A stretch of 51,765 nt of DNA from Chloroflexota bacterium (GCA_016865895.1 VGNY01000002.1:1-51765); one strand, 5' to 3'. Shown: positions 6,972-34,841, counted from the first letter of the stretch. Program-made: numbers and translations. The notes: a model not told the origin generated them from the sequence alone.

Positions 6972-7436
6972 TCAAATAGGCTCAAAATACTCGATATCGC
7001 GGATATCCCCCTCAGGTTTATCCCTCCATTTAGCCCTCACCGTCATGCCAATCTTGATTTTATCTTTTGCTTTTTCAATGTTGGAGAGATCCACGCCGCC
7101 GATGAAATGAGATATTGCAGTATCGGCACCATCCAAATCTATCAACCCTGCTATGTACGGGGGCTCCATAGGCTGCCCGGAAAATTCAAAGGTAATCAGT
7201 GACCAAGTCTTTACTTTACCCTTGTCGCTCACTTGAACCCACTCTGTAGCATCCTCAAAGCAGCGAGGACAAAACTTCCTGGCCGGAACAAGCACACGCT
7301 TACACTTAGGACACTTAGTTCCCATTATTCTCTTATTTTTAAACTCTTCAAAAAACCTAGTGATTACCGGGCCCATTGCCCATCTGTAGGGCAACGCAAT
7401 CTTTCCTTCTATAATTCTTGATTCCGCTTTTGCCAT
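6972..7436 (-). CDS. DUF35 Zn-ribbon/OB-fold acyl-CoA-associated protein
   Basis: CPKCKRVLVPARKFCPRC zinc ribbon followed by an OB-fold-sized C-terminus. Sits downstream of two thiolase-fold genes. Confidence 0.85.
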   Translation of the reverse strand: MAKAESRIIEGKIALPYRWAMGPVITRFFEEFKNKRIMGTKCPKCKRVLVPARKFCPRCFEDATEWVQVSDKGKVKTWSLITFEFSGQPMEPPYIAGLIDLDGADTAISHFIGGVDLSNIEKAKDKIKIGMTVRAKWRDKPEGDIRDIEYFEPI

Positions 7437-7450
7437 CTTAAGCCTCCTTT

Positions 7451-8617
7451 TTATAATTGACTGCCAATAATCATAATTCCATTAAGCTGGTCCATCCCGC
7501 CCATAGCATGGGCAAGAGCTGTCCTGGCTCCGGGTATCTGGCGTTCGCCAGCCCTACCAGTTACTTGCAACGCTGCTTCACCAACTCGAATCAACCCTGT
7601 GGCTCCTATGGGGTTAGTACACAAAACACCTCCAGAAGGTGTGCAGGGTAATTCACCGCCTCTCAAAACAACACCATCTTCTACAAGTTTGCAGCCTTCG
7701 CCAAAGTCGCAAAAACCAAAGCACTCGTAAAAGATAAGCTCTTGATAAGTAAACGGGTTATATACTTCGGCGACATCGAATTCTTTTCGCGGATTTGTAA
7801 TGCCCGCCATTTTGTAGGCTTCCTTTGCTGCGATAATGGCTGATTCCCAGACTACCTTGTCACTATCACCAAAAAAGGCTTCATCGCCAGCATAACCAAG
7901 ACCCTTTACCCAAGCTGCCTTTTTCGGAAACCTTTTTGCCTTTTCCTCACTGGCAAAAATGACAGCACAAGCCCCATCTGAAGAGGGACAAACGTCCATC
8001 AGCCTCGTTGGATAAGCGATAATCCGCGATTTCAGCACATCTTCAACTGTAATTTTCATCCTAATATGGGCATAAGGGTTATCCAGAGCATTATCATGAT
8101 GGTTGACAGAAATGCGGGCTGCTGCCTCCCTCACCCTTTCGTCTGGCAAATTATATCTGTGAGCATACTGGATAGCTTGCATGCTAAAAATACCGGGGGC
8201 TCCAGGAATAAAAGGTCTCTGGAAGAAGGGTTCAGCTACAGTGTTCATAGTCCCTTGAGGGTCACTTTCAAACATCTTTTCAGTTCCCACTGCCATTACG
8301 ACATCAAAAAGTCCTGAAGCTACATGATAGAAGGCGGAATGGGCAACAGACATCCCCGTGCTACCACATGTAGCTATATGCATTAACGGTCTGTCTAAAG
8401 CTGCCATGGCACCTGATAGATACAGATGGGCAGCATTTATGCCTTCCATTGCCGAAGGCATAGATGAATGAGTCACCGCTTCTATATCTTCAGGCGAAAT
8501 GCTGGCATCCTCCAGAGCTGCTTTTACCGCCTCGTAAGCAAGTTCAACATAATTAACGTCTTCCCTTCGTCCGTGTTTGGTCTGCCCGACTCCTATAATA
8601 GCTACTGCTCTCGCCAT
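7451..8617 (-). CDS. SCPx/archaeal-type thiolase-fold protein (Cys retained, GHP His replaced)
   Basis: AIIGVGQTKHG N-terminus. HIATCGSTG at the nucleophile site. PSGGVLCTNPIGATG where GHP is expected. Confidence 0.85.
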   Translation of the reverse strand: MARAVAIIGVGQTKHGRREDVNYVELAYEAVKAALEDASISPEDIEAVTHSSMPSAMEGINAAHLYLSGAMAALDRPLMHIATCGSTGMSVAHSAFYHVASGLFDVVMAVGTEKMFESDPQGTMNTVAEPFFQRPFIPGAPGIFSMQAIQYAHRYNLPDERVREAAARISVNHHDNALDNPYAHIRMKITVEDVLKSRIIAYPTRLMDVCPSSDGACAVIFASEEKAKRFPKKAAWVKGLGYAGDEAFFGDSDKVVWESAIIAAKEAYKMAGITNPRKEFDVAEVYNPFTYQELIFYECFGFCDFGEGCKLVEDGVVLRGGELPCTPSGGVLCTNPIGATGLIRVGEAALQVTGRAGERQIPGARTALAHAMGGMDQLNGIMIIGSQL

Positions 8618-8630
8618 TTCTTATTACCTC

Positions 8631-9770
8631 CTATTTACCTAGAATGACTACGGAGTGATGTTGCCCGGCAAAGCCATAAGTAGCATGTGCCAGTGCTGTT
8701 TTCACACTGGACACTTGTCTTTTTTCGGCTTTGCCCATCACTTGAAGAGCGGCCTCAGCAATTCTAAAAAGCCCCCTGGCGACATATGGATTCATAGCTA
8801 AAAGACCACCGGATGGATTAACAGGTAGCTCACCATCCATAGCAGTAACTCCGCTATCTATTAGTTTTGCCCCTTCGCCATCTTTGCAGAAGCCTAATTG
8901 CTCATACCACAGGAGTTCCTGAAACGAATAGGGCTCGCAAATCTCCGCCACATCTATCTCTTTTCGTGGGTTCTTAATGCCAGCCATATCATAAGCCTTC
9001 TTAGCTGTTTTTCTCAGCACACCATCAAGCAAGTCCCTGTCACCAAAGAATTGATGGTCAACGCACCAACTGACCCCTTTAACCCATGCCGGATTTTTGG
9101 TTAACTTCTTCGCCTTTTCCTCAGATGCCAGAAGCATAGCACAAGTGCCATCAGAATATGCCGCACAATCTAATGCCTTTATCGGATGTGCCATAACCTG
9201 TGACATCAGAACCTCATCAATAGTAACCTTTCCCGCCTTTTGAACATAAGGGTTATTTATGGCATTGCCGAGATTTTTCACCACTACCTTTGCCGCGTGT
9301 TCCTCAGTTATTCGGTACTTCTCCGTATACAGTCTTGCTTGCATAGCTGCCGCGGAGATATCATCAAGCGCAATCGGACGCTGGAAAAAAGGGTCAGCAT
9401 ACAGATTGGTCAATGTGCTTAAGCTTGGAATCTCGGATGACTTGGTTATGGCATGAACTAAGGCATTATCGAAATGCCCGCTCATCACCCTCATCAGTCC
9501 ATAGATAAAACCTGCGGCACCATCTTCCGAGGCTTTGGAGGTGTCTTTCAGATAAGCTCCTATAGCATCTAGGTAATAGGTATTGGAGCAACTAATACCC
9601 TGCCAGAAGTCTGAAGAGGAAGAAATGATTGTGCCCAGCTTTTCACGTTTCATGCCAACCTGATTTAGTACATCTTTGGTTACTTCATAACTCAGATCCC
9701 GAATGTTTTTGTTTAAAGCATCGTTATGTCCTATCTGGGCAACGGCCACAATGGCTACTCTATTTGCCAT
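8631..9770 (-). CDS. thiolase-like protein lacking the nucleophile Cys
   Basis: Same fold and length as the neighbour. SKASEDGAAG at the nucleophile position (Ser) and AMNPYVARG instead of GHP. AAGGAGG RBS. Confidence 0.8.
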   Translation of the reverse strand: MANRVAIVAVAQIGHNDALNKNIRDLSYEVTKDVLNQVGMKREKLGTIISSSSDFWQGISCSNTYYLDAIGAYLKDTSKASEDGAAGFIYGLMRVMSGHFDNALVHAITKSSEIPSLSTLTNLYADPFFQRPIALDDISAAAMQARLYTEKYRITEEHAAKVVVKNLGNAINNPYVQKAGKVTIDEVLMSQVMAHPIKALDCAAYSDGTCAMLLASEEKAKKLTKNPAWVKGVSWCVDHQFFGDRDLLDGVLRKTAKKAYDMAGIKNPRKEIDVAEICEPYSFQELLWYEQLGFCKDGEGAKLIDSGVTAMDGELPVNPSGGLLAMNPYVARGLFRIAEAALQVMGKAEKRQVSSVKTALAHATYGFAGQHHSVVILGK

Positions 9771-9878: not shown

Positions 9879-9907
9879 AATATACTCGCCACTGCCCTGA
9901 TTGTCAA
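9879..9907 (-). promoter_or_regulatory. promoter TTGACA-N17-TATATT for the thiolase/DUF35 operon
   Basis: Read on the minus strand: -35 at 9902-9907 and -10 at 9879-9884, with an exact 17-nt spacer. Confidence 0.5.
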
Positions 9908-9933
9908 TGGGCACAAAGCACAATGGGCACAAA
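9905..9933. repeat. two perfect 13-bp direct repeats CAATGGGCACAAA (candidate operator)
   Basis: Copies at 9905-9917 and 9921-9933 lie exactly between the two back-to-back -35 boxes. Confidence 0.7.
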
Positions 9934-9937
9934 CATA

Positions 9938-9966
9938 TTGACAATCCTCAGAAAGTCAAGTATATT
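9938..9966 (+). promoter_or_regulatory. promoter TTGACA-N17-TATATT for the carboxylase operon
   Basis: -35 at 9938-9943 and -10 at 9961-9966, with an exact 17-nt spacer. This mirrors the minus-strand promoter. Confidence 0.5.
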
Positions 9967-10091: not shown

Positions 10092-11450
10092 GTGGGTTCT
10101 CGCATGCTCAAATCTATACTAATCGCTAACCGTGGGGAAATTGCACGGCGGATAATCAGGACAGCCAAAACACTAGGCATCGAAACCATAGCCATACATT
10201 CTGATGCAGACGAAACGGCTCTGTTTGCCCAGGAAGCAGATAAAGCTATAAGAGTTAGCGGCGCTAAACCTAGAGACTGTTACCTTAATATTGACAATAT
10301 TATTGGAATAGCCAAAGAGGTGAAAGCAAGTGCCATACACCCCGGATATGGATTCTTATCAGAAAGGTGGGAATTCGCCCAAAGATGTGAAGAAGAAGGC
10401 CTCATATTCATTGGACCAAAGTCTGAGGTAATCCATAGAATGGGCGACAAAGCTCGCTCCCGAGAAATAGCTACCAGCCTGGGTATACCGATCCCACCAG
10501 GGAGTGGCATCTTAGGCAGTATTGAAGAGGCAAAAGAATGGGCAGCAAAACTTTCCTTTCCTGTCATTTTCAAGGCATCAGCTGGAGGTGGAGGCATAGG
10601 CATGCAAAAGGTGGAAACAATGGAAGAGGTAGCAGAAGCATTCGAACAGGCTTCAAATCGGGCTAGATTGGCTTTCGGCGACGACAGAGTCTACATCGAA
10701 AAATATTTAGAGTCACCTCACCACATAGAAATCCAAATTCTGGGTGACAAAAACGGTGATGTGGTCACCTTTCCCGAAAGAGAATGTTCGGTGCAAAGAC
10801 GGCATCAAAAAGTAATCGAGGAATCACCCTCACCTTTCGCCACCACTGAGCTAAGAATGGGACTCAGGCAAGCAGCTAAAAGACTAGCTCAAGAGCTTGG
10901 ATATACCAATGCCAGTACTGTAGAATTCGTCGTCGACAAAAACCGAAACTTCTACTTTCTGGAAATAAATACCAGGCTTCAGGTAGAGCACCCTATTACG
11001 GAGATGATAACAGGCCTCGACCTTGTGGAACACCAAATCAAGATTGCTTCTGGCAGGCCCTTATCAATTGGGGAAAAGGACATCAAATGGAAGGGATGGG
11101 CCATTGAAGCTCGAATTTATGCTGAGGACCCGGAAAACTTCTATCCCTCCCCAGGCAAGCTAATCTCCTATGTAGAGCCTCATGGTGATGGAATAAGAGT
11201 TGATTCTGGCTACAAGGCCTGTGACACCATCAGCCAGTTTTACGACCCTCTGATTGCCAAGCTAATCGTTTGGGGTGCAGATAGAGACAAAGCTATAACG
11301 AGAATGCTAAAAGCTCTAAATGATTATGAGATCACTGGCATTAAAAACAACATCCTCTTCCTGAAGAAAGCTTTTGATTCCGCAATGTTCAAATCGGGAA
11401 CTTACGATACACATTTCATATCAAGGTTAAAGGAGATGAAAAATGGGTGA
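10092..11450 (+). CDS. accC: biotin carboxylase subunit of an acyl-CoA carboxylase
   Basis: ILIANRGEIARRIIRT, ATP-grasp loop GGGGIGMQKV and EINTRLQVEHPITE. An alternative ATG start lies at 10104. Confidence 0.9.
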   Translation: MGSRMLKSILIANRGEIARRIIRTAKTLGIETIAIHSDADETALFAQEADKAIRVSGAKPRDCYLNIDNIIGIAKEVKASAIHPGYGFLSERWEFAQRCEEEGLIFIGPKSEVIHRMGDKARSREIATSLGIPIPPGSGILGSIEEAKEWAAKLSFPVIFKASAGGGGIGMQKVETMEEVAEAFEQASNRARLAFGDDRVYIEKYLESPHHIEIQILGDKNGDVVTFPERECSVQRRHQKVIEESPSPFATTELRMGLRQAAKRLAQELGYTNASTVEFVVDKNRNFYFLEINTRLQVEHPITEMITGLDLVEHQIKIASGRPLSIGEKDIKWKGWAIEARIYAEDPENFYPSPGKLISYVEPHGDGIRVDSGYKACDTISQFYDPLIAKLIVWGADRDKAITRMLKALNDYEITGIKNNILFLKKAFDSAMFKSGTYDTHFISRLKEMKNG

Positions 11451-13014
11451 CGTGATGAGAAAGGAAGTTGAAAAACTTTCAGAACTCCGCGAGGAAATCA
11501 AAAAGATGGGCGGTGAAGCAGCCGTCAAAAAACATCACGATAGAGGAAAGCTGACTGCTCGGGAGCGACTGGACCTCCTAATTGAAAAGGGAACTTTCGT
11601 TGAAGTCGGCATGCTCGGGAGCGAATTCGGGGTACCTGAGCTTGTCCCTGCCGATGGATGCATTACCGGCTATGGCAAACTGAATGATGGAGTTACTCTC
11701 AGGGATGTAGCTGTGGCAGCCTACGATTTCACAGTAAGAGGCGGCTCCATGGGCATAACCAACGAGACCAAGGTAACCAGAATACGAGAAATCGCTCTTA
11801 AGCAGAGGATTCCTATGATATGGCTGAGTGACTCCGGGGGTGCCAGAGTAAGCGGTGGAGGCCTTTCCGGTGAAAGAATACCACTGTTCGCTGATTCCGG
11901 CTACCTCTTTAAGGAAGAATCGCTGATGTCCGGCATAATCCCGCAGATTTGCGCTATGATGGGACCAGGATATGCTGGTACAGCCTATATCCCAGGGCTT
12001 TCCGATTTTGTGCCCATGGTCAAGGGAACTAGCTTTATGGGGCTAGGCGGACCATCTCTTGTAGAAATGGTAATCCACGAGAAACTTACCGAAGATGAGC
12101 TAGGAGGCTCTAAGGTTCATTGCGAGATAAGTGGTTGTGGGGATTTGGAAGTGAAATCAGATGAGGAGTGTATCAAAGCAATAAAGCAGTATCTTGCCTT
12201 CTTTCCCCAGAATTGCGACCAAAAACCACTCCGAAAGGAATGGACCGGAGACCCTGAAGCTTTGATTTCCGGCGGTATATTGAATGTTATTCCGGACAGT
12301 CCTCGAGAAGCTTACGACATGCACGACCTCATAAAATACATAGTGGACGACGGTTACTTTTTCGAAATGAAGCCGAAGTGGGGAAGAAATATCATTGTTG
12401 GATTTGGGAGAATAGCCGGCTATTCAGTAGGATTTGTAGCCAATAACCCTCTTTTCTATGGCGGTGTCATCGATATAGATGCCGCTGACAAAGCCGCCCG
12501 CTTTATCTGGCTCTGCGATGCTTTCAACATACCGCTCCTTTTCATCTCCGATGTCCCGGGCTTCATGGTCGGGTCTAAAGCTGAGAAATCAGGTATTATC
12601 AGACATGGGGCCAAGATGATTCACGCCGTTTCTGAAGCTACGGTTCCCAAATTTACCCTGGTTGCCAGAAAATCCTACGGGGCGGGGTATTATGCAATGT
12701 GTGGTAGGGCTTTCGACCCAGACCTATTGATTGCCTACCCCGGAGCTGAGATATCAGTCATGGGCCCAGAGGGAATGGTGTCTATTTTTGCCAGGAAGCA
12801 ATTAGCGGAGGCCGAAAATCCTCAAGAGATGATAGAGCGTCTTGCCGATGAGATAAGACCACAAATTAACATCCACAAGACAGCCAGATTTGGCATCGTG
12901 GACGACGTTATCGACCCTAGAGAAACCAGAAAAGTCTTGCTCAGAGCTCTCGAGTTTACAAAAGACAAGAGGATATACCGGCATCCCAGAAAACACGGCG
13001 TTTACCCTGTCTAA
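11443..13014 (+). CDS. acyl-CoA carboxylase carboxyltransferase subunit (MCC/GCC-beta-like)
   Basis: GKLTARERLDLL, DSGGARV, PGFMVGSKAEKSGIIRHGAKM and YYAMCGRAF...ISVMG. The ATG overlaps the BC stop, with an AAGGAG RBS. Confidence 0.9.
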   Translation: MGDVMRKEVEKLSELREEIKKMGGEAAVKKHHDRGKLTARERLDLLIEKGTFVEVGMLGSEFGVPELVPADGCITGYGKLNDGVTLRDVAVAAYDFTVRGGSMGITNETKVTRIREIALKQRIPMIWLSDSGGARVSGGGLSGERIPLFADSGYLFKEESLMSGIIPQICAMMGPGYAGTAYIPGLSDFVPMVKGTSFMGLGGPSLVEMVIHEKLTEDELGGSKVHCEISGCGDLEVKSDEECIKAIKQYLAFFPQNCDQKPLRKEWTGDPEALISGGILNVIPDSPREAYDMHDLIKYIVDDGYFFEMKPKWGRNIIVGFGRIAGYSVGFVANNPLFYGGVIDIDAADKAARFIWLCDAFNIPLLFISDVPGFMVGSKAEKSGIIRHGAKMIHAVSEATVPKFTLVARKSYGAGYYAMCGRAFDPDLLIAYPGAEISVMGPEGMVSIFARKQLAEAENPQEMIERLADEIRPQINIHKTARFGIVDDVIDPRETRKVLLRALEFTKDKRIYRHPRKHGVYPV

Positions 13015-13025
13015 GGAGGACTCGA

Positions 13026-13811
13026 ATGTATCAGACTATAACAGTCGAAATAAGAAATAAAGTAGCCACAATAACCCTATCTCGAGAGGAGAGAAGAAAC
13101 GCCATCTCGCCAACGATGATGACCGAACTTTTGGATGTCTTCAAAAAATATGACGATGACCCATCAGTAGTCGCTATCGTGCTGACCGGAGCTGGTAGTA
13201 AGGTTTTCTGCGCCGGTGCTGATTTTGCCGAGTCTATGGGTGCTGCAACAAGTTTCCTTGACCGCTATGAAGGACAAAGAAATTTTGCCGAGCTTTTTAA
13301 GATAATCAAAGGCTTGAAGAAACCTTTGATCGGCCGGATGAATGGCCATGCCCTCGGTGGTGGGCTTGGGCTGGCCTGTGCCTGCGACATAGTAATTGCT
13401 GCCGATGATTGTCTCTTTGGAACACCGGAAATAAACGTGGCGCTATTCCCTTATATTATTATGGCAACTTTAGTTCGCTTCACTTCGACTCCAAAGAGAC
13501 TGCTAGAGATGATGCTTACTGGAGAAAGAATCCCTGCCAAAGAAGCCCAGATGCTGGGCATAGTGAGCCATGTGGTGCCCAGAGAACAGCTGGATGTAAA
13601 AGTTGACGAAATCGCCAAGAAAATAGCCAATAAAAGTCCAGCCATTCTGAGACTCGGCAGAAGAGCCTTCTACACAATGCGAGATATGGAGTATGAGAAG
13701 GCATTAGAATATCTAGCATCGATGCTGGCCATTAATACAATGGCTGAAGATGTAACTGAAGGCATTGCCGCTTTTCTGGAAAAGCGTGAACCAATATGGA
13801 AAGGAAAATAA
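13026..13811 (+). CDS. enoyl-CoA hydratase/isomerase (crotonase) family protein
   Basis: VLTGAGSKVFCAGADF oxyanion-hole motif, GHALGGGLGLACACD and a C-terminal AAFLEKREPIW. Confidence 0.9.
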   Translation: MYQTITVEIRNKVATITLSREERRNAISPTMMTELLDVFKKYDDDPSVVAIVLTGAGSKVFCAGADFAESMGAATSFLDRYEGQRNFAELFKIIKGLKKPLIGRMNGHALGGGLGLACACDIVIAADDCLFGTPEINVALFPYIIMATLVRFTSTPKRLLEMMLTGERIPAKEAQMLGIVSHVVPREQLDVKVDEIAKKIANKSPAILRLGRRAFYTMRDMEYEKALEYLASMLAINTMAEDVTEGIAAFLEKREPIWKGK

Positions 13812-13826
13812 CGGAGAGGAGTAACC

Positions 13827-14699
13827 ATGAGCTTACAGGACAAAGTAGTAATAACTGCGGCTTTGACCGGTGTGGCAGCTAACAGAGACCAATGCAAGTG
13901 GATACCATATACCCCTCAGGAAATTGCTGAAGAGGCACTAAGTGCCTACAACGCCGGGGCTTCGGTAGTACATATTCATGGCAGAGAATATGATGGCCGT
14001 CCGTCTTGGAGAGTGGAGATTTTTAGAGAGATTATGGAAGAGACGAGGAAAAGGTGCCCCATCATAATAAACTTTTCCACCGGTGCTGTAGGCGTAGACA
14101 GGGACAACAGAATCGCTCATATTCGCGAACTGAAGCCGGAGATCGCAGCACTGAATATGGGAACAATGAATTATGCCAAATACAGTCAAAGGCGGAGGAA
14201 CTTCGTCTTCTCGGTTGTCTTCCAGAACCCATTCGATGATATAATGTTCTTTTTGGACACCATGAATAAGAGTGGTGTGAAACCGGAGTGCGAATGCTTT
14301 GACCTTGGGCATTTGGAGAGCGTGTTTCCGCTAATGGACATCGGATTACTCAAGAATTTTGAGGTAAGCCTCATTATGGGGGTGGTTGGGGGTATGGCGG
14401 CTACAGCTAGAAATCTAGCTCATGTGGCCAGTGTGGTACCCCCCGGTGTGCCCTGGCAAGTAATAGGTATCAGCGAGGACCAATGGCTGCTGATAGCTAC
14501 CGCTCTGGCTCTTGGTGGAAATGTCAGAGTCGGACTTGAAGATAATTTTTATCTATCGCCTGGAGAGATGGCACAAGGAAATGGCCCTTTAGTAGAAAAA
14601 GCAGTAAGAATGACACGTGACATTGGCAGAGAGCCAGCGACGGTGGAAGAGGCTAGAACCATTCTGCGGTTGGTAGAAACAACGAGTGGAGATAAATAA
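13827..14699 (+). CDS. BKACE (beta-keto acid cleavage enzyme, DUF849) family protein
   Basis: VVITAALTG...IPYTPQEIAEEA...GASVVHIHGRE at the N-terminus. Its ~290 aa size is typical of the family. Confidence 0.8.
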   Translation: MSLQDKVVITAALTGVAANRDQCKWIPYTPQEIAEEALSAYNAGASVVHIHGREYDGRPSWRVEIFREIMEETRKRCPIIINFSTGAVGVDRDNRIAHIRELKPEIAALNMGTMNYAKYSQRRRNFVFSVVFQNPFDDIMFFLDTMNKSGVKPECECFDLGHLESVFPLMDIGLLKNFEVSLIMGVVGGMAATARNLAHVASVVPPGVPWQVIGISEDQWLLIATALALGGNVRVGLEDNFYLSPGEMAQGNGPLVEKAVRMTRDIGREPATVEEARTILRLVETTSGDK

Positions 14700-14716
14700 C
14701 CTGAGTTAAGCAAACC

Positions 14717-14929
14717 ATGACAGAAGTTGTTTCACCGATCACAGGCAGCGTCTGGAAAATTGTGATAGAAGTTGGTGCACAAGTTGGCGAGGGTGAGACT
14801 ATCGTTATACTTGAATCTATGAAAATGGAAATCCGAGTGAAATCCCCTCACAACGGGAAGGTGGTGGAAATTCGGGTAAAAGAGGGCGATTCAATTCTAG
14901 AAGACGACATTATCGCCATTATTGAGTAG
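14717..14929 (+). CDS. free-standing biotin carboxyl carrier protein
   Basis: 70 aa with a biotinyl-lysine motif (LESMKMEI) in a lipoyl/biotinyl hammerhead-sized domain. Confidence 0.85.
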   Translation: MTEVVSPITGSVWKIVIEVGAQVGEGETIVILESMKMEIRVKSPHNGKVVEIRVKEGDSILEDDIIAIIE

Positions 14930-14961
14930 TAAGCAACCTACTTGTGATATGGAGGGCAAGC

Positions 14962-16152
14962 ATGGACTTTAGATTTACCGAAGAAGAGGAGGCATTTAGG
15001 AAAGAGGTTCGCCAATGGCTGAAACAGGAAATCCCGCCAAGATGGTTTGAACTTGACCCCGGCATGTGGGAGGAAACTGAAGAGTCCTGGGCGATTTCCC
15101 GCCAGTTCCAACGCAAACTTGGGCAGAAAGGCTGGCTGGCACCAGCATATCCCAAGGAATACGGCGGCTTGGAATTGAGCCATACAAAACGGCTCATACT
15201 CGCTGAGGAGATGGCTTACAACAGGGCACCCGTCAGCGTAGAGGTGGAGATAACAGTAAACTGGGTAACCCCCACCATTATGCTTTTTGGAACCGAAAAG
15301 CAAAAGAACGACTATGTAACTCGGGTAGCAAAGGGGGACATTATTTTCTGTCTTGGCTATAGCGAACCAAATGCTGGCTCCGACCTTGCTGCACTCCAAA
15401 CTCGCGCTGTTGAAGCTGGTGATGAGTATGTAATTAACGGCCAGAAGATATGGTGTAGCTATGGCCATTTAGCCGACTATTGCTGGCTTGCTGCCAGAAC
15501 TGACCCAGATGCCCCCAAGCATAAAGGAATCAGTATGTTTGTTGTCGACATGAAGACGCCGGGAATCACCATTCGCCCTCTGGTGAATATCTTGAACCGT
15601 CACTCTTTTAATGAGGTCTTCTTTGATGATGTGCGTATCCCCAAAGATAACTTGGTAGGACAGAAAAACAACGGCTGGTATCAACTAGTTATAGCTTTAG
15701 ACTATGAACGTTCCTCAGTTGGCACCGCTGCAGCACAGCAACGAATCATTGAGGAACTAGTCAAATATGCTAAAGAAACCAAGCGCAATGGGAAACCGAT
15801 TGCCAAAGACCTGCTGATCAGGAATGAATTGGCAGAAATGGCAGTCGAAAATGAAGTCCTCCGCATGATGTGCTATCGCATCGCCTGGATGTACAGCAAA
15901 AACCTTCATCCCAGCTATGAATCGTCAATGGCAATGATTTTTGGCAGCGAAGTAATGAGACGGTTAGCCAACGTAGGTATGCGTATCATGGGACATTATG
16001 GTGAACTTGACAGGGACTCCAAGTGGGCTCCCCTTAATGCTAGGATAATGCGGATGTTTCTATGCTCAGTCTCAATAGGCGTTGGAGGCGGCTCTAACGA
16101 GATTCAGCGCAGCATTATCGCTATGAGAGGTTTAGGGTTACCTCGGCACTAA
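14962..16152 (+). CDS. acyl-CoA dehydrogenase, alpha-type (IVD-like catalytic Glu position)
   Basis: MDFRFTEEEEAFRKEV start at an ATG preceded by GGAGGG (the track ORF begins 18 nt earlier). GYSEPNAGSDLA, LDYERS and GGGSNEIQRSIIA. Confidence 0.9.
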   Translation: MDFRFTEEEEAFRKEVRQWLKQEIPPRWFELDPGMWEETEESWAISRQFQRKLGQKGWLAPAYPKEYGGLELSHTKRLILAEEMAYNRAPVSVEVEITVNWVTPTIMLFGTEKQKNDYVTRVAKGDIIFCLGYSEPNAGSDLAALQTRAVEAGDEYVINGQKIWCSYGHLADYCWLAARTDPDAPKHKGISMFVVDMKTPGITIRPLVNILNRHSFNEVFFDDVRIPKDNLVGQKNNGWYQLVIALDYERSSVGTAAAQQRIIEELVKYAKETKRNGKPIAKDLLIRNELAEMAVENEVLRMMCYRIAWMYSKNLHPSYESSMAMIFGSEVMRRLANVGMRIMGHYGELDRDSKWAPLNARIMRMFLCSVSIGVGGGSNEIQRSIIAMRGLGLPRH

Positions 16153-16187
16153 TCATTGCACACACTAGCTTCTGAAAAAGGACGACT

Positions 16188-17384
16188 ATGGATTTTAGAT
16201 TTAATGAGAAGGAAGAGGCATTTCGAAGAGAGGTCGAGAGTTTCATAAAGACAGAGCTGCCTGCAAATTGGACCGAGAAAAACATCTACTGGCCAGGGGG
16301 ATATGGCACTTTATCAGAATTTGAGGAGGTGAACACTCAAATCGAGCAATTCAGACGTAAGTTAGCCGAGAAAGGATGGCTTACCATCTCGTGGTCTAAA
16401 GAATACGGCGGCGCAGGGCGCACCAATATTGAACAGGCCATCTTCCACGAGCGGATGAGCTATTATAGGGCACCCGGTGGTGAAGTAGCCACACTAATCG
16501 GCGGCCCCACCATCATGCTTTTCGGCAGCGACGAAATGAAGAAGGAATGGCTACCAAGGATAGCCAGAGGAGAGGCGAGATTCTGGCTGGCCTACAGCGA
16601 ACCAAACTCTGGCTCTGACCTTGCTTCTATTCAGACTCGTGCTGTCGAAGACGGTGATGACCTCATTATCAACGGACAAAAAATCTGGGGTACTGCCGCT
16701 CACGTGTCACATTATGCCTGGATGATTGCCAGGACAGACCCTAATGTTGCTCCCCATAGAGGGATTACACTACTCATGGTAGACAACCAATCATCAGGTG
16801 TTACTATCCGCCCCTTGATGAATATATGTGGTACCCACTCTTTTAATGAGGTATTCTTCGATAATGTACGTGTACCCAAAAAGAACATCGTTGGGGAGAA
16901 GAACAAAGGGTGGTATTATGTAATGGTAGCCCTAGACTTTGAGAGGCTTGTAATCCCTATAGGGGGCTTCAAGCGGACCTTCGAAGAGATAACAGAGTAT
17001 GCCAGGGAAACAAAACACAACGGACAACCTTTGACCCAGAATCCTCTAATAAGGAATAAACTAGCTGCGATGGCAATCGAGATTGAAGTAGCCTACATGT
17101 TCTTCTGGCAAACAGCCTGGATGCTTGACAAAGGACTTATCCCAAATATCGAAGCATCTGTGCTAAAGCTGTTTACCACCCAGCTAAGCCAAAAGCTAGC
17201 AAATACCGGGATGCAGGTTATGGGACATTATGGGCCATTAGAAAGGAATTCCAAATGGGCATCCCTAATAGGGAGAGTTCCGGCAGGATACATGGATTGT
17301 ATTTCTGCCCTCGTTGGTGCTGGCACTTCTGAAATCCAGCGAAATATCATTGCCATGAGGGGGCTAGGGCTGCCCCGACCATAG
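16188..17384 (+). CDS. acyl-CoA dehydrogenase, alpha-type paralog
   Basis: Collinear with the previous ACAD: MDFRFNEKEEAFRREV, YSEPNSGSDLA, LDFERL and GAGTSEIQRNIIA. Confidence 0.9.
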   Translation: MDFRFNEKEEAFRREVESFIKTELPANWTEKNIYWPGGYGTLSEFEEVNTQIEQFRRKLAEKGWLTISWSKEYGGAGRTNIEQAIFHERMSYYRAPGGEVATLIGGPTIMLFGSDEMKKEWLPRIARGEARFWLAYSEPNSGSDLASIQTRAVEDGDDLIINGQKIWGTAAHVSHYAWMIARTDPNVAPHRGITLLMVDNQSSGVTIRPLMNICGTHSFNEVFFDNVRVPKKNIVGEKNKGWYYVMVALDFERLVIPIGGFKRTFEEITEYARETKHNGQPLTQNPLIRNKLAAMAIEIEVAYMFFWQTAWMLDKGLIPNIEASVLKLFTTQLSQKLANTGMQVMGHYGPLERNSKWASLIGRVPAGYMDCISALVGAGTSEIQRNIIAMRGLGLPRP

Positions 17385-17434
17385 ATGAAGCCTGAAGTAA
17401 ATTATGTAAACTCATGTAGAATAGGAGGGAAAAG

Positions 17435-18565
17435 ATGGACCTTGGTCTGACTGAAGAACAAGAGATGCTGAAGACATCAGCTCGTGACTTTCTGCAAAAA
17501 GAATGCCCCAAGCAATTGGTCAGGCAATTAGATGAAAGCGACACTGGCTACTCCCCTGAACTGTGGCAAAAAATGGCTGAACTGGGCTGGATTGGGCTGG
17601 TATTCCCTGAGAAATATGGTGGCAGTGGTGGTAGCTTCCTGGACTTGATAGTCCTTCTCGAGGAGATGGGACACAATATATTGCCCGGCCCATTTTTTTC
17701 AACCGTAATTCTCGGTGGTCTTACTATCATGGCAGCAGGAGACGAGGAACAAAAGAAAGAGTTCCTGCCCAAAATTGCCGGCGGTAAGATGCTCCTTACC
17801 TTAGCATTAACAGAGCCCAGTGCCAGCTATGACGCATCGTCAGTGAAGACTCAGGCCGTAGGTACTGACGGATATATTATCAACGGCACCAAATTGTTTA
17901 TTCCTGATGCTAACATAGCTGACCACATACTATGCGTAGCCCGGACAAAAAAGGAAAAGAAACCAGAAGACGGGACCACCATTTTTCTTGTTGATGCCAA
18001 AAGCCCTGGAGTCAAATGTACTCTCCTCAAAACTCTAGCTCGCGACAAACAATGTGAGGTTATCTTCGACAATGTGAGTGTGCCACAAAAGAACATCTTG
18101 GGCAAGCTAGACCAGGGCTGGCCTATAGTAAAACAGGTTCTCCAAAAGGCAACGGTAGCCAAATGTGCTGAGATGGTCGGGGGTGCCCAGGCTGCATTAG
18201 AGATGGCTGTCCAATATGCCAAGGACAGAGTTCAATTTAACCGGCCTATTGGTAGCTTTCAGGCTATCCAGCATTATTGTGCCAACATGGTGACCGATGT
18301 TGATGGTGCACGGTTCATTACATACAAGGCAGCCTGGAAGGTAAGCGAAGAGCTACCGGCTGATATGGATATAGCTATAGCCAAAGCCTGGACTAGCGAG
18401 GCTTGTGGACGGGTTACCCTGTTAGCACATCAGATATTCGGTGCAATTGGCTTTACCATGGACCATGATATACACCTGTATTACAGGCGAGCCAAAGCTG
18501 GTGAGATAATGTTCGGCGACGGCGATTTTCAACGCGCTATCGTAGCCCAAGAATTAGGGCTCTAG
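17435..18565 (+). CDS. acyl-CoA dehydrogenase-fold protein, beta-type (no catalytic Glu seen)
   Basis: ACAD fold (LTEPSASYDASS). It has Ala at the IVD-type base position (LQKATVAKC) and Phe at the MCAD-type position (IMFGDGDFQR). Confidence 0.85.
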   Translation: MDLGLTEEQEMLKTSARDFLQKECPKQLVRQLDESDTGYSPELWQKMAELGWIGLVFPEKYGGSGGSFLDLIVLLEEMGHNILPGPFFSTVILGGLTIMAAGDEEQKKEFLPKIAGGKMLLTLALTEPSASYDASSVKTQAVGTDGYIINGTKLFIPDANIADHILCVARTKKEKKPEDGTTIFLVDAKSPGVKCTLLKTLARDKQCEVIFDNVSVPQKNILGKLDQGWPIVKQVLQKATVAKCAEMVGGAQAALEMAVQYAKDRVQFNRPIGSFQAIQHYCANMVTDVDGARFITYKAAWKVSEELPADMDIAIAKAWTSEACGRVTLLAHQIFGAIGFTMDHDIHLYYRRAKAGEIMFGDGDFQRAIVAQELGL

Positions 18566-18567: not shown

Positions 18568-19488
18568 TCACCAGTTCACTTTATTCAGGCCTTTAAGCCC
18601 TAATATCTGCCTTGCCTCATCAGGAGTCGCTGGTTCCAGGCTTAACTCTCGAGCTATGCGCACTATTTTCTCTACCTGGTCAGCATTACTTTTGGCCAAG
18701 ACACCTTTACCAGCATAAAGGCTGTCTTCCATACCAACCCTGGCATTACCGCCCATAACTAGAGACATAGTACACATCGGCATCTGATGGCGGCCAGCAG
18801 CACATACCGACCACACGAAGTCGCCAATTTGCTCTCGAGCGCTGTTGAATAAGTATAGCAAATTACTCGGTGACGCAGGCATACTACCTAGAATGCCTAA
18901 TACGAACTGCAAATAAACAGGCTTCTTAAGATATCCTCTCTGCAGCATAAAAGCTACATTGTTAATCATTCCTGCATCATATATTTCCAGCTCAGGCTTT
19001 GTTTCATTTTCCTCAAAAGCCTGACTGAACTCTCGCAGCGTCTTAAAAGTATTGGCGAAAATGAAATCTTCCGTTCCTTGTAAATACGGTTTCTCCCAGG
19101 GAAATTTAAATTTTCTGACAGCTTCTGCTATAGGGAATAGCCCGAAATTTATTGAACCGAAGTTGAATGATGCCAGTTCTGGCTTAAAAGTTGTCACCCC
19201 CTTCACCCGCTCCGCCGTGGTCATGCCCACGCCACCACCAGTGCTCAAACAAAGAACAATGTTGCACCTGCTCTTCACCTTGGTGACTACCTCCCGAAAC
19301 AACTCCATATCAGAGCTTGGCTGACCGGTTTCCGGATTGCGGACATGGATATGGGCTACTGCCCCACCAGCTTCATACACTCTTACTGCCTCATCAGCAA
19401 TTTGCTGAGGCGTTATCGGTAAGTACGGAGACATGCTGGGAACATGAATGCTGCCAGTAATAGCTGCGGTGATTATAACCTTGCTCAT
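18568..19488 (-). CDS. BKACE (DUF849) family protein, second copy
   Basis: VIITAAITGSIHVPSMSPYLPITPQQIADEAVRVYEAGGAVAHIHVRN. Its stop lies 2 nt from the converging ACAD stop. Confidence 0.85.
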   Translation of the reverse strand: MSKVIITAAITGSIHVPSMSPYLPITPQQIADEAVRVYEAGGAVAHIHVRNPETGQPSSDMELFREVVTKVKSRCNIVLCLSTGGGVGMTTAERVKGVTTFKPELASFNFGSINFGLFPIAEAVRKFKFPWEKPYLQGTEDFIFANTFKTLREFSQAFEENETKPELEIYDAGMINNVAFMLQRGYLKKPVYLQFVLGILGSMPASPSNLLYLFNSAREQIGDFVWSVCAAGRHQMPMCTMSLVMGGNARVGMEDSLYAGKGVLAKSNADQVEKIVRIARELSLEPATPDEARQILGLKGLNKVNW

Positions 19489-19720: not shown

Positions 19721-20515
19721 TCACGCCAGCCAACGTTTCCGCCGCTTGTAATGTTTTACCTCGCGGTAACTTCTCCTCTGCCCTACCTTGCTCAACCCTA
19801 GATAAAACTCCTTTATGTCCTCGTTATCTCTCAGTTTCTCAGCCGGTCCATCCATAACCACGCGGCCATTTTCCATAACATAGCCATAGTTAGCCAGTTC
19901 CAGTGCTGCCCTAGCATTCTGCTCCACCACTAAAATAGAGGTCTTCTCCTCGGTGTTAATCCTTTTCACTATGTCAAAGATTTCTCTTACCAGTATCGGG
20001 CTGAGCCCTAGAGATGGCTCATCCAAAAGCATCAGCTTCGGGCGAGCCATAAGCGCTCGCCCCATGACCACCATCTGCCTCTCACCCCCGGAAAGATAAC
20101 CAGTCGTGGCATGACGCAGGTCTTTCAGCTTTGGAAAATAATCATATACCATGTCCAGGTCTCTTCTTACCCCTGCAGCATCACCACGTGTATAGGCGCC
20201 TACTTTCAATTCCTCATCCACATGCAGGTGCTCGAACATGGGACGTCCCTCCATAACCTGAACGATTCCCAACTTGACCACATCTTCAGGGTTCATCCTG
20301 TCTATTCGCTGGCCATCCCACTCAATGCTGCCATCGGTAACATCGCCTTCCTCTGTATAAAGCAGTCCGGAAATTGCCTTAAGCGTAGTTGTCTTGCCGG
20401 CACCGTTACCACCGAGCAGCGTTACGATACCACCATCAGGCACCTCCAGCGATACTCCCTTGAGCACCAATATCACATTGAGATAGATAACTTCAATATT
20501 GTTCAACTTTAACAT
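19721..20515 (-). CDS. livF: Liv-type ABC transporter ATP-binding protein (LivF-like)
   Basis: Walker A GGNGAGKTT, signature LSGGERQM and Walker B LMLLDEPS, with a basic C-terminal tail. Confidence 0.9.
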   Translation of the reverse strand: MLKLNNIEVIYLNVILVLKGVSLEVPDGGIVTLLGGNGAGKTTTLKAISGLLYTEEGDVTDGSIEWDGQRIDRMNPEDVVKLGIVQVMEGRPMFEHLHVDEELKVGAYTRGDAAGVRRDLDMVYDYFPKLKDLRHATTGYLSGGERQMVVMGRALMARPKLMLLDEPSLGLSPILVREIFDIVKRINTEEKTSILVVEQNARAALELANYGYVMENGRVVMDGPAEKLRDNEDIKEFYLGLSKVGQRRSYREVKHYKRRKRWLA

Positions 20516-20670
20516 GTTGTACCCCTTTTATTATCGTTTCTATAATCGAGACAGGGTGCACCCTATTGTCGCTGTATTTCTCGTCTGTGTCAGGATGTTG
20601 ATAAACAGTATTATATATCTTACACCTATACATAATTTGCATCAAGCAACCATACATGGAAGTCGTTTAT

Positions 20671-20750
20671 CAATGTCATTCTGAGGAGTCCCAACAAATT
20701 AGGGCGCCGAAGAATCTCGGAGATTCTTCGCTTCGCTCAGAATGACATTG
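20671..20750. mobile_element. MITE-like palindromic element flanked by an 8-bp direct repeat
   Basis: 15-bp terminal inverted repeats CAATGTCATTCTGAG (20671-20685) and CTCAGAATGACATTG (20736-20750). Central GAAGAATCTC-G-GAGATTCTTC hairpin. TCGTTTAT at 20663-20670 and 20753-20760. Confidence 0.55.
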
Positions 20751-20787
20751 AATCGTTTATAAACAGTCTCCCTACATACTCGAGGCA

Positions 20788-20820
20788 AAAGGAGAAACCT
20801 CTCGGAAAGGCTTCTCCTTT
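20788..20820 (-). terminator. candidate hairpin terminator after the lipoprotein gene
   Basis: A 12-bp stem (AAAGGAGAAACC/GGCTTCTCCTTT, one wobble) with a 9-nt loop. Only a short U tract on the minus strand. Confidence 0.35.
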
Positions 20821-20866
20821 CCTTACTTCTTTCAGTCTATGTGTCCTCTCTCAGATGTACCCGTGT

Positions 20867-21934: not shown

Positions 21935-21955
21935 TATTCTGCCTCCTTCCTCCTC

Positions 21956-23227: not shown

Positions 23228-23309
23228 TTGCAGCCTTTCACCTCCTTCATTTTAGTCCCTCGCTTTTAAGTTTCAATTCATACAATGCCCATTATCACCC
23301 CCTTTCACG

Positions 23310-24581: not shown

Positions 24582-24617
24582 TTTCAACCTCCCCATATTT
24601 TTATTCCAGCTATGCCG

Positions 24618-25664: not shown

Positions 25665-25665
25665 G

Positions 25666-26550: not shown

Positions 26551-26575
26551 TTCTCCTCCTTCAACTCATCTTGTT

Positions 26576-28543: not shown

Positions 28544-28553
28544 TTACGCCCTC

Positions 28554-29339: not shown

Positions 29340-29392
29340 ATGAACTCAAACTCAGAGGAAACTATTAAGTGTAAACACCTAGTTTAGATAAT

Positions 29393-29470
29393 TATACAAT
29401 ACTTGTCAATAGTCTTATGGGAGATTTGCTAATCACCACTACTCATTACTACTATACAACATTTGTCAAA
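29393..29470. repeat. two 18-bp direct repeats TATACAAyAyTTGTCAAw, 60 bp apart
   Basis: Copies at 29393-29410 and 29453-29470 in the divergent intergenic region between livG and the acyl-CoA ligase. Confidence 0.6.
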
Positions 29471-29491
29471 ACCCAAACGTTGTGCTATAGT
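29463..29491 (+). promoter_or_regulatory. promoter TTGTCA-N17-(TGc)TATAGT for the ligase-livGF operon
   Basis: -35 at 29463-29468, extended -10 TGCTATAGT at 29483-29491, AGGAGG at 29510 and a GTG start at 29522. Confidence 0.5.
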
Positions 29492-29521
29492 CTTCATTCG
29501 AAGAAAAGTAGGAGGTAACAC

Positions 29522-31237: not shown

Positions 31238-31238
31238 A

Positions 31239-32751: not shown

Positions 32752-32775
32752 AGCGAGACCGTCTACTAATGTAGC

Positions 32776-34824: not shown

Positions 34825-34841
34825 AAATAAACCTTCAACAG

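Follow-up and report, generated by a model that had tools for sequence, protein, structure and literature searches.

Two non-canonical thiolase-fold proteins and a DUF35 partner, predicted to form a heteromeric retro-aldol lyase in anaerobic bacteria

What reaction can be expected of two thiolase-like proteins whose active sites depart from the canonical pattern and whose genes lie beside that of a DUF35 protein? The question is raised by a locus of an uncultured anaerobic lake bacterium, which we analysed within a window of 51,765 nucleotides. The genes, in the order B, A and DUF35, form a tight minus-strand operon, and the three ORFs called in the window coincide exactly with those of the first-pass annotation (Table 1). 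The spacers measure 13 nt (B/A) and 14 nt (A/DUF35), each gene has its own SD sequence, and a strong one, AAGGAGGTG, precedes the start of B. Because homologues reach E values down to 1e-249 and the databases hold 5153 relatives of A and 3030 of B, both are real genes and not chance ORFs.

Both proteins match Pfam Thiolase_C_1; A also matches Thiolase_N, for which B scores 17.9 bits, below the cut-off of 26.4. They are SCPx-type paralogues sharing 40% identity (hhalign probability 100), and by the Pfam domain search B is not an HMG-CoA synthase. Structure models (pLDDT 84 for A and 88 for B) confidently adopt SCP2/archaeal-type thiolase folds, the AF2 models giving TM values of 0.8–0.9 to 7yvy, 6esq, 4yzo and 7pxp. 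The structural matches further include Ltp2 (6ok1) and Sal (9myr), with true thiolases ranking above them in both Foldseek and HMM searches. The third protein contains zf-ChsH2 and OB_ChsH2_C domains, that is, a Cys4 zinc ribbon (C42, C45, C56, C59) and an OB fold, in line with the initial description of two thiolase-like proteins and a DUF35 Zn-ribbon/OB protein.

Table 1. Features of the locus and of the adjacent divergent operon (window coordinates)
Feature	Position	Strand	Evidence
Subunit B, 379 aa, predicted thiolase-fold partner subunit	8631..9770	-	ORF, Pfam, structure model, family alignment
Subunit A, 388 aa, presumed catalytic subunit	7451..8617	-	ORF, Pfam, structure model, family alignment
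DUF35 protein, 154 aa, presumed staple of A/B core	6972..7436	-	ORF, domain search, co-evolution
A Gly85 codon, canonical nucleophile position	8363-8365	-	segment alignment
A Cys84 codon, one residue before nucleophile position	8366-8368	-	segment alignment
A Y286-N-P-F, replaces HDCF	7751-7762	-	alignment
A Asn335-Pro, replaces GHP	7610-7615	-	alignment
B Cys278 codon	8937-8939	-	family alignment
Promoter-like site, B-A-DUF35 operon; TTGACA-17-TATATT, 11/12 matches	9879..9907	-	sequence
Promoter-like site, divergent operon; TTGACA-17-TATATT, 11/12 matches	9938..9966	+	sequence
Candidate shared operator	9900..9945	.	inverted repeat read from sequence; function inferred
Divergent operon, whole	10092..18565	+	domain/profile searches
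Biotin carboxylase	10092-11450	+	
PCC-type carboxyltransferase	11443-13014	+	
Crotonase-type hydratase	13026-13811	+	
BKACE	13827-14699	+	
BCCP, 70 aa	14717-14929	+	
PimC/PimD-like ACADs, three	14944-18565	+	

The nucleophile register was set by a 39-residue segment that aligns without gaps in six references, the window's own thiolase (42479-43681; NFCATATEAF, EVHDCF, CFGHPIGASG) among them; it starts at the Pro preceding the strand, ends at VGxEKM and has the nucleophile at index 9. A has the same segment spacing as all six, and here index 9 is Gly85 and index 8 is Cys84. Its motifs HIATCGSTG (residue 80) and CTNPIGATG (residue 333) are present as first quoted, as are those of B and the paralogue, and the Cys that had been taken for a retained nucleophile is this Cys84, one residue too early. 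A change that had been overlooked, and which is the decisive one, concerns the HDCF loop, which reads Y-N-P-F in A and C-E-P-Y in B. Counted over 121 A and 121 B relatives, Gly85, Tyr286, Pro288 and Asn335 of A are each fixed (121/121) and Asn287 is kept in 118/121. The canonical residues of SCP2/SCPx thiolases, namely the nucleophilic Cys, the HDCF His with the acid/base Cys, and the GHP His, are absent from their catalytic positions in both A and B; the loss of the GHP His had been recognised from the outset.

Cys84 is invariant among the clade relatives (121/121), and a local shift of the loop could still bring it into the active site, where it would serve as nucleophile. A would then be a non-canonical retro-Claisen thiolase in which Cys84 acts after a one-residue shift, Tyr286 and Asn335 replace the His/Cys machinery, B is inactive and DUF35 serves as in BbsAB; one HMMER alignment (to 7yvy) does introduce a gap that pairs Cys with Cys, and Cys84 adjoins the canonical position. 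We regard such a thiolase as quite unlikely. The ungapped spacing from both flanks places Gly85, not Cys84, at the nucleophile position, A has neither the His of GHP nor an acid/base Cys, and A-type relatives in Streptomyces, Rhodococcus and Cupriavidus retain the Tyr, Asn and Gly, with Ala or Gly replacing Cys84. Judged from these alignments, Cys84 is specific to the anaerobe clade of A.

In B, profile alignments reveal a 3-residue deletion in the nucleophile loop, which has no Cys (SKASEDGAAG at residue 78). The initial reading of this loop as Ser instead of Cys does not describe the family, in which 71 of the 121 relatives have Glu and 32 have Ala at this position. B has no Tyr at the position of the HDCF His, which is occupied by Cys278 (conserved in 120/121), and Asn327-Pro, within AMNPYVARG at residue 325, stands in place of GHP (Asn327 115/121); Lys79, Arg332 and His362 are invariant. 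It had been proposed that at most one subunit could form an acyl-enzyme; 'probably none' is the better wording, and the retro-Claisen option is therefore unlikely.

A thiolase fold with a DUF35 partner is seen in Ltp2–ChsH2, a steroid C3 side-chain aldolase, and Sal–Shy, a bile-acid C5 side-chain aldolase. In TcLtp2 (Y294DHF) and CtSal (Y302DCY) the catalytic base is a Tyr at the position of the HDCF His of SCP2 thiolases, and its exchange for Phe abolishes CtSal activity; the nucleophile-Cys position of CtSal is Gly (Gly89), with an equivalent also described for TcLtp2, and the backbone of the CtSal Gly contacts the substrate hydroxyl (PMC12329534). A shares both the Tyr and the Gly with Ltp2 and Sal. 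Mapped via SCP2 thiolases rather than by direct alignment, the catalytic acids of the known aldolases are absent from A, as Ltp2 Tyr344 becomes Asn335 and the essential Cys304 of Sal (motif position +2) becomes Pro288, so that A requires a different proton donor. At the Ltp2 Tyr344 position Sal has Gln352, an amide comparable to Asn335. Unlike the predicted complex of the trio, Ltp2 has a homodimeric core, a DUF35 domain fused to a hydratase and a steroid substrate, and is only 24–25% identical; the alpha-beta-beta-alpha complex of Sal is likewise built on a homodimer, with 21–23% identity.

BbsAB (7pxp), a benzoylsuccinyl-CoA thiolase of anaerobes, resembles the trio in combining an SCPx-type thiolase subunit with a separate DUF35 protein. 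Being a strong match in sequence and fold, it would favour a retro-Claisen thiolase, as would the fact that the nearest structures are true thiolases. BbsB, however, keeps the Cys, H-D-A-F and GHP in a homodimeric core and is itself a true thiolase, and the scores with the BbsB model (117–150 bits, cut-off 750) and the BbsA model (35 bits, cut-off 250) argue against this assignment. In the thiolase/HMG-CoA synthase/DUF35 complex, whose thiolase subunit ranks with the leading structural hits, DUF35 holds two thiolase-superfamily proteins, but there a canonical thiolase is combined with an HMG-CoA synthase that has a catalytic triad of its own. The window carries this arrangement at a separate locus (42479-45158). 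In the PDB, A and B both find their best sequence match in the uncharacterised Sulfolobus tokodaii protein ST0096 (4yzo), which likewise has no nucleophile Cys (index 9 is Ser) but keeps H-D-M-A and GHP.

The closest precedent, absent from those first named for DUF35 partners, is the actinobacterial pair Ltp3/Ltp4 with a neighbouring OB-fold (DUF35) protein of the Rv3521 type. In the literature these two proteins, encoded next to Rv3521, are regarded as aldol-lyases required for branched sterol side chains. Known only genetically, they are the only case so far of a two-subunit thiolase-fold aldolase. On synteny and gene lengths, we provisionally take the NCBIfam pair PRK08313/PRK07937 to be Ltp3/Ltp4. 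PRK08313 sorts as A-type (349 versus 252 bits) and PRK07937 as B-type (172 versus 86 bits). PRK08313 is the best model for A, at 385 bits below the cut-off of 514, and B reaches 203 bits with PRK07937 (cut-off 419), while a Streptomyces pair clears both cut-offs with 713 and 550 bits. This pair lies, with an OB-fold protein, on a plasmid of S. clavuligerus (L089), one of three other places where the A-type signature (Gly / Y-x-P-F or C / N-P) occurs together with a B-type subunit and DUF35, the others being a plasmid-borne Rhodococcus cluster that includes ACAD and MaoC pairs, and a C. necator plasmid operon.

Like the trio, Ltp3/Ltp4-type loci have two paralogous SCPx-type thiolase-like genes, B-type before A-type, beside a DUF35-type gene; their A subunit has Gly at the nucleophile position, Y-x-P-F and x-N-P, and their B subunit is without the nucleophile and carries the loop deletion. 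The two groups nevertheless differ. Identity is only 42% for A and 33% for B; the trio's single DUF35 protein of 154 aa is encoded downstream, whereas that of the Ltp3/Ltp4 type has ~300–340 aa and lies upstream; B has C-E-P-Y and N-P where PRK07937 has H-A-P-F and H-P; and Cys84 belongs to the trio's clade. The trio's hosts are strict anaerobes without sterol-catabolic genes nearby, unlike the Ltp3/Ltp4 setting: the window contains no sterol-catabolic genes, and the EchA19 model gives 185 bits against a cut-off of 400. Our literature search on DUF35 with syntrophs or anaerobic aldolases returned nothing on the trio's clade.

The exact motifs were found in 175 species-level genomes. Hosts of the trio include Dehalococcoidia, Syntrophales, Desulfomonilaceae and Bacillota, among others, represented by anaerobic MAGs from sediments, peat, groundwater and lakes, and clade members are 64–94% identical across phyla. 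Could A and B nevertheless be two separate homodimeric enzymes, each with DUF35, catalysing different steps? Asgard archaea have A without an adjacent B or DUF35, some loci carry two DUF35 genes, the known cores of Ltp2, Sal and BbsB are homodimers, and the pocket of B (Lys79, Cys278, Arg332, His362) is conserved to a degree unusual for a dead subunit. The genomic data render this arrangement unlikely. In a sample of 82 non-redundant loci, counted by gene order, 70 keep B>A>DUF35, and B precedes A also in Cupriavidus, Streptomyces and Rhodococcus; the gene spacing suits coupled translation, and B, with its shortened nucleophile loop, lacks a recognisable catalytic set. Distance matrices correlate with r = 0.93 for A–B, 0.87 for A–DUF35 and 0.86 for B–DUF35, compared with 0.31–0.44 between trio genes and an adjacent ACAD or MaoC. 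A, B and DUF35 evolve as a single unit.

The same 82 loci reveal the metabolic context, with ACAD at 45, MaoC at 40, CoA-transferase at 27, AMP-ligase at 26, BKACE at 18 and SDR at only 2; a Pfam search of 133 further neighbour ORFs yielded no recurrent 3HCDH family. ACAD and MaoC are thus the usual neighbours, and the 3-hydroxyacyl-CoA dehydrogenase that would be needed to supply a thiolase substrate is almost never nearby, which argues further against a retro-Claisen reaction. By analogy, ACAD and MaoC without a dehydrogenase correspond to the logic of ChsE/ChsH/Ltp2, where an ACAD and a MaoC hydratase act before Ltp2. The trio in the window is flanked by ACADs and a crotonase; no MaoC gene adjoins it, and a MaoC pair lies 32 kb away.

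The observed sequences, motif replacements and their conservation, folds, synteny and co-evolution suggest that B, A and DUF35 probably constitute a heteromeric thiolase-fold retro-aldol lyase for 3-hydroxyacyl-CoA, with A as the catalytic subunit, B as its partner and DUF35 as a staple; the heteromer itself we infer from genomics. The trio is best read as the anaerobes' variant of the Ltp3/Ltp4 type. The original proposal of a retro-aldol-type C–C lyase rather than a standard thiolase is thereby supported, the comparative evidence being the Tyr and Gly of A, the loss of the thiolase catalytic residues from both subunits, the neighbours, the synteny and the co-evolution. In the proposed mechanism, an acyl-CoA dehydrogenase would act with a hydratase, which is MaoC in most genomes and the crotonase of the divergent operon here, to turn an acyl-CoA into the 3-hydroxyacyl-CoA. 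Tyr286 of A would take the proton from the beta-hydroxyl, which would be held by the Gly85 backbone where the nucleophile formerly sat, and cleavage of the C-alpha/C-beta bond would release an aldehyde or ketone and the enolate of acetyl- or propionyl-CoA. A general acid would protonate the enolate, candidates being the clade-specific Cys84, His370 and water; no acyl-enzyme would form and no free CoA would be consumed. B would be the paralogous second half of the dimer, shaping the substrate site or binding part of the substrate with its conserved pocket residues Lys79, Cys278 and Arg332, and the zinc-ribbon/OB protein would clamp the core as in Ltp2–ChsH2 and Sal–Shy. We agree with the first-pass annotation that a specific substrate is not assignable, but it is likely an acyl-CoA whose beta-carbon is bulky or not oxidisable, e.g. 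branched or alicyclic. 3-Hydroxyisovaleryl-CoA, 3-hydroxy-3-alkylglutaryl-CoA and 2-hydroxycyclohexane-1-carboxyl-CoA were considered, and the evidence does not discriminate between them.

Upstream of B, the candidate operator consists of an inverted repeat, ATTGTCAAT / ATTGACAAT, that includes both -35 boxes and brackets two copies of the direct repeat CAATGGGCACAAA (9905-9917 and 9921-9933). The divergent operon is probably co-regulated with B-A-DUF35 and may be functionally tied to it; in Desulfarculia (L039) the trio and the divergent-operon gene set form a single co-directional cluster. This set (BC, CT, BCCP, ECH, BKACE), next door here and again in L039, would suit a Liu/Atu-like scheme of gamma-carboxylation, hydration, HMG-CoA-lyase-like aldol cleavage and BKACE. 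We dropped this as a leading idea because the carboxyltransferase is clearly of PCC/ACC/MMCD type (380–456 bits) and not of MCC/GCC type (260–275 bits); the role of the carboxylase may simply be propionyl-CoA handling.

The BKACE neighbours score 406 and 425 bits, just below the 430 cut-off of the 3,5-dioxohexanoate:acetyl-CoA transferase model. These triacetate-lyase-like proteins could tie the complex to polyketide-like beta-dicarbonyls, on which it would catalyse C-acyl transfer or decarboxylation in the manner of PhlACB/MucABC or TbSLP; the fold searches give significant matches to PhlC, MucC and TbSLP, and in the Phl system PhlB belongs to DUF35. We consider such an activity highly improbable, as no KAS-III-like PhlA partner is present, identity to PhlC/MucC/TbSLP-type proteins is only 17–23%, and the ACAD/MaoC context points to acyl-CoA beta-processing. 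Moreover, PhlC has a Cys at the canonical nucleophile position, with which the PDB title 'CsATase C88S' is consistent.

More tentatively, the predicted retro-aldol lyase could lie at the centre of a beta-cleavage module that manages without a dehydrogenase and is widespread, though so far unrecognised, in strict anaerobes, a possibility to which we give rather less credence than to the reaction itself. In this module, ACAD and hydratase would be followed by the heteromeric aldolase and finally by BKACE or CoA-transferase, with hosts in Syntrophales, Desulfomonilaceae, Dehalococcoidia and Bacillota and A alone in Asgard archaea. It would feature an obligate heterodimer and a new catalytic constellation, Tyr286 as base with Cys84 or another acid, and would open branched or alicyclic acyl-CoAs beyond the reach of ordinary beta-oxidation, in a non-steroid, anaerobic Ltp-type role.

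Thiolase-fold aldolases have so far come from aerobic steroid and bile-acid degradation, whereas the A-type/B-type/DUF35 design described here defines a large, highly conserved clade in uncultured anaerobes, with thousands of database members. If these proteins are retro-aldolases, they would represent a step that has been missing from the anaerobic degradation of branched or cyclic organic acids, the label 'acetyl-CoA acetyltransferase' would have to be corrected in many annotations, and a new catalytic variant would become available for C–C bond biocatalysis. A cultured entry point is offered by the plasmid homologue of Cupriavidus necator.

The three open reading frames were found exactly at the coordinates and on the strand assigned by the first-pass annotation and are real genes. 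Their spacers measure 13 nt (B/A) and 14 nt (A/DUF35), each gene has a strong Shine-Dalgarno site of its own, and B is preceded by a near-consensus promoter. Under the chosen thresholds, databases contain 5153 relatives of A and 3030 of B, with top identities of 94% and 89%, respectively. A and B are close paralogues of each other (hhalign probability 100, 40% identity), and their AlphaFold models, which are confident (pLDDT 84 and 88), superpose on SCP2 and archaeal thiolases with TM values of 0.8–0.9. Ltp2, Sal, PhlC and TbSLP appear as lower-ranked structural matches; despite PhlC among them, a PhlACB-like acyltransferase is an unlikely identity for the trio.

Features of the trio, the divergent operon, the region between them and a nearby BKACE gene
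Feature	Position	Strand	Length	Characteristics
DUF35 protein	6972-7436	-	154 aa	ChsH2-type zinc ribbon and OB fold
A	7451-8617	-	388 aa	Thiolase_C_1, SCPx-type
B	8631-9770	-	379 aa	Thiolase_C_1, SCPx-type
Promoter pair	9879-9966	both		near-consensus promoters placed back to back, each strand carrying TTGACA-17-TATATT
Inverted-repeat arms	9900-9908; 9937-9945			ATTGTCAAT; ATTGACAAT; the arms are the -35 boxes
Direct repeat	9905-9917; 9921-9933		13 bp	CAATGGGCACAAA, inside the inverted repeat
BCCP	14717-14929	+	70 aa	ORF in the gap between BKACE and the first ACAD; …ILESMKMEI…; PRK05889 73.7 bits, cut-off 75
BKACE near the trio (not that of the divergent operon)	18568-19488	-		3,5-dioxohexanoate:acetyl-CoA transferase (triacetate-lyase-type) model, 406 bits, cut-off 430

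The motif strings quoted earlier for A, B and the canonical paralogue at 42479-43681 were all recovered, and the paralogue has the Cys, EVHDCF and GHP elements. The nucleophile register was tested on the segment that starts at the Pro preceding strand N-beta-3 and ends with the VGxEKM strand, using 6esq, 7yvy, 6hsj, 7pxp_C, 4yzo and the 42479-43681 thiolase as references. In all six, the segment comprises 39 ungapped residues with the nucleophile at index 9. The spacing in A is likewise 39 residues, but index 9 is occupied by Gly85 and Cys84 falls at index 8; the Cys of A, which had been read as the retained nucleophile, is therefore out of register by one residue. Profile alignments of B place a three-residue deletion in the nucleophile loop, and most relatives have Glu or Ala where B has the Ser said to replace its Cys. 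The GHP His is indeed lost from both proteins (Asn335 in 121/121 sequences of A, Asn327 in 115/121 of B), and the alignments put neither catalytic Cys nor catalytic His at the canonical positions. Overall, the first-pass annotation holds for coordinates, motif strings and His loss and needs correction for the Cys of A and the Ser of B; it also missed that the HDCF loop of SCP2 thiolases is changed in A and B alike. The loop reads Y-N-P-F in A, where Tyr286, Pro288 and Phe289 are each found in 121/121 sequences and Asn287 in 118/121, and C-E-P-Y in B, where Cys278 is found in 120/121.

In thiolase-fold retro-aldolases the base is a Tyr in place of the HDCF His, within the motifs Y294DHF (TcLtp2), Y302DCY (CtSal) and YDCF (TbSLP), and the Y302F exchange abolishes CtSal activity (2025 Sal paper, PMC12329534). 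The nucleophilic Cys of SCP2 thiolases is replaced in CtSal by a Gly, precluding thiolysis; the backbone of this Gly contacts the substrate hydroxyl, and the equivalent Gly of TcLtp2 was proposed to play the same part (PMC12329534). A shares both hallmarks with Ltp2 and Sal, the Tyr at the HDCF His and the Gly at the nucleophile position. It differs in the proton donors, as position comparison finds neither Ltp2 Tyr344, replaced by Asn335 (comparable to Sal Gln352), nor Sal Cys304, replaced by Pro288, implying that the acid of A would differ from the known ones. Cys84 is an obvious candidate for the acid of this clade; A-type relatives outside the clade have Ala or Gly at this position.

Neighbouring families were counted within 7 kb of A at 82 non-redundant loci. 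Acyl-CoA dehydrogenases (ACADs) occur at 45 loci and MaoC hydratases at 40, followed by Family-I CoA-transferases (27), AMP-ligases (26), sigma-54 activators (23), BKACE (18), crotonases (8) and SDRs (2). This is the same dehydrogenase, hydratase and aldolase logic as in ChsE-ChsH-Ltp2. When 133 further neighbour ORFs were scanned with Pfam, no 3-hydroxyacyl-CoA dehydrogenase family recurred, and Pfam-annotated example loci give the same picture. The dehydrogenase that would supply a thiolase with substrate is almost never nearby, A has neither the His nor the acid/base Cys, and Cys84 is absent from A-type relatives outside the clade, so that a non-canonical thiolase using Cys84 is unlikely.

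The comparative evidence supports a heteromeric C-C lyase, as proposed, and allows the reaction type to be narrowed to that of a retro-aldolase. An ACAD and a hydratase would generate a 3-hydroxyacyl-CoA, the hydroxyl of which would be held in A by the Gly85 amide and deprotonated by Tyr286. Cleavage of the C-alpha/C-beta bond would then yield a carbonyl compound and an acyl-CoA enolate, to be protonated by an acid. B would constitute the other half of the dimer, with the core clamped by DUF35; conservation of Lys79, Cys278, Arg332 and His362 suggests that B has a substrate-binding or structural role and is not decaying. The trio is probably a DUF35-associated variant of the thiolase-fold aldolases of the Ltp3/Ltp4, Ltp2 and Sal types, widespread in anaerobes.

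When each species was represented by a single genome, 175 genomes encoded a relative of A. All 80 loci listed are from uncultured organisms, comprising Dehalococcoidia, Syntrophales, Desulfomonilaceae, Desulfarculia and Bacillota as well as Jordarchaeia/Freyarchaeota and a Euryarchaeota bin. The nearest relatives of the window are Dehalococcoidia, and its DNA is present in lake-water metagenomes. The order B>A>DUF35 is kept in 70 of the 82 non-redundant loci; six others are cut by contig ends, and in the remaining six, five of which are archaeal with A alone, the trio is incomplete. Across 78 units, distance matrices correlate with r = 0.93 (A-B), 0.87 (A-DUF35) and 0.86 (B-DUF35), compared to 0.31–0.44 for controls against the nearest ACAD or MaoC, which may include non-orthologous paralogues. 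For that reason, we consider the correlations evidence for joint inheritance and shared constraint of the three proteins, not proof of contact. The alternative of separate A2 and B2 enzymes, for which the lone A of Asgard archaea speaks, is less likely, as it fits the synteny and co-evolution less well than a heteromeric retro-aldolase.

A without adjacent B or DUF35 was observed at L007, L033, L051 and L057 (Jordarchaeia/Jordarchaeaceae) and L061 (uncultured archaeon), and a B homologue does occur in one Jordarchaeum MAG (P0239). The archaeal stand-alone A proteins, mostly Asgard, are 62–67% identical, and so high an identity between bacterial and archaeal proteins suggests horizontal transfer. 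Whole units are duplicated, in tandem or nearby (B A DUF35 MaoC B A DUF35), at L016, L017, L021, L022 and L026, mostly in Desulfomonilaceae or Deltaproteobacteria MAGs, at L025 (Syntrophales), and at L045, L048, L050 and L056; many other loci have two successive DUF35 genes. These arrangements suggest that paralogous complexes act on different substrates and that the stoichiometry of DUF35 varies.

Among curated models, PRK08313 fits A best, whereas B is matched by PRK08313, PRK06065/66 and PRK07937 ('lipid-transfer protein'); none of the scores reaches its cut-off. A tblastn search of plasmids yielded three informative loci. In Streptomyces clavuligerus, overlapping genes encode a 339-aa OB-fold protein and members of PRK07937 (354 aa, 550 bits) and PRK08313 (388 aa, 713 bits). 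Going by synteny and gene lengths, PRK08313/PRK07937 probably correspond to Ltp3/Ltp4. In M. tuberculosis, Rv3521, ltp4 (Rv3522) and ltp3 (Rv3523) are consecutive, and Ltp3/Ltp4 are described, in literature citing Wilbrink 2012, as aldol-lyases needed only for C24-branched sterol side chains. A Rhodococcus plasmid cluster combines pairs of ACAD and MaoC genes with genes for a hypothetical protein of 304 aa, a thiolase-domain protein of 392 aa and a Zn-ribbon/OB-fold protein. On a Cupriavidus necator plasmid, the gene order of an operon is ECH, AMP-ligase, B-like, A-like, DUF35, DUF35, AMP-ligase, thiolase, ECH. A-family and B-family HMMs sorted the plasmid proteins cleanly. The A-type proteins (PRK08313 member, Rhodococcus 392-aa protein, Cupriavidus 'A') all have Gly at the nucleophile index, Y-x-P-F/C and x-N-P; of the B-type proteins, the PRK07937 member and Cupriavidus 'B' share the loop deletion, and the Rhodococcus 304-aa protein is weakly B-type (46.7 vs 35.2 bits). 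The trio is, on these comparisons, a distant relative of the Ltp3/Ltp4 design: identity is 42% for A and 33% for B, the scores fall below the curated cut-offs, and the biological setting is a different one.

The unannotated C. necator operon (locus L088, 6566-16095; plasmid NZ_CP068436.1, around 1,076-1,079 kb), from a cultured aerobe, has a divergent MalT/LuxR regulator, a canonical thiolase, a 391-aa B-like protein and a 399-aa A-like protein with TGGT, YEPC and TNP, and lends itself to experimental work on enzymes of this type. A terpene synthase adjoins the S. clavuligerus pair (L089, 9911-12085), and in two Dehalococcoidia MAGs (L003/L004, 8-8671) the trio adjoins, in divergent orientation, a DXS, polyprenyl synthase, radical-SAM and squalene-hopene cyclase cluster, which may hint at isoprenoid-related substrates.

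The trio shares a symmetric promoter region, a candidate operator by its repeats, with a divergent operon encoding a biotin carboxylase (BC), a PCC-type carboxyltransferase (CT), a biotin carboxyl carrier protein (BCCP), a crotonase, BKACE and three PimC/PimD-like ACADs, a gene combination that is co-directional with the trio in a Desulfarculia locus (L039). The newly noticed BCCP completes a three-part acyl-CoA carboxylase with the separate BC (452 aa) and CT (523 aa). The carboxyltransferase resembles PCC and not MCC/GCC, which speaks against a gamma-carboxylation route of the Liu/Atu type. More speculatively, the carboxylase may process propionyl-CoA from the aldolase, and BKACE could re-thioesterify beta-keto-acid products. 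Two BKACE genes near the trio, at 18568-19488 of the window (406 bits) and in L001 (14683-15618; 425 bits), fall just short of the 430-bit cut-off of the 3,5-dioxohexanoate:acetyl-CoA transferase model.

A second thiolase/DUF35 locus (41469-45158, minus strand) encodes a 480-aa protein in which an HMG-CoA-synthase-like domain (PRK04262, 223 bits, cut-off 244) is fused to a C-terminal DUF35. Beside it lies the canonical SCPx thiolase (PRK06157, 631 bits, reaching the curated cut-off), and the locus also holds a MaoC/FAS1-DH hydratase pair, two SDRs and two ACADs. The arrangement is similar to the archaeal thiolase/HMGCS/DUF35 complex, here with DUF35 fused and in a bacterial cluster of catabolic appearance. 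The stretch between the two acyl-CoA clusters (19721-36647) holds three Liv-type ABC transporter gene sets, one with an unusually long 601-aa solute-binding protein, and three AMP-dependent ligases, and the window as a whole has the look of an island for organic-acid catabolism.
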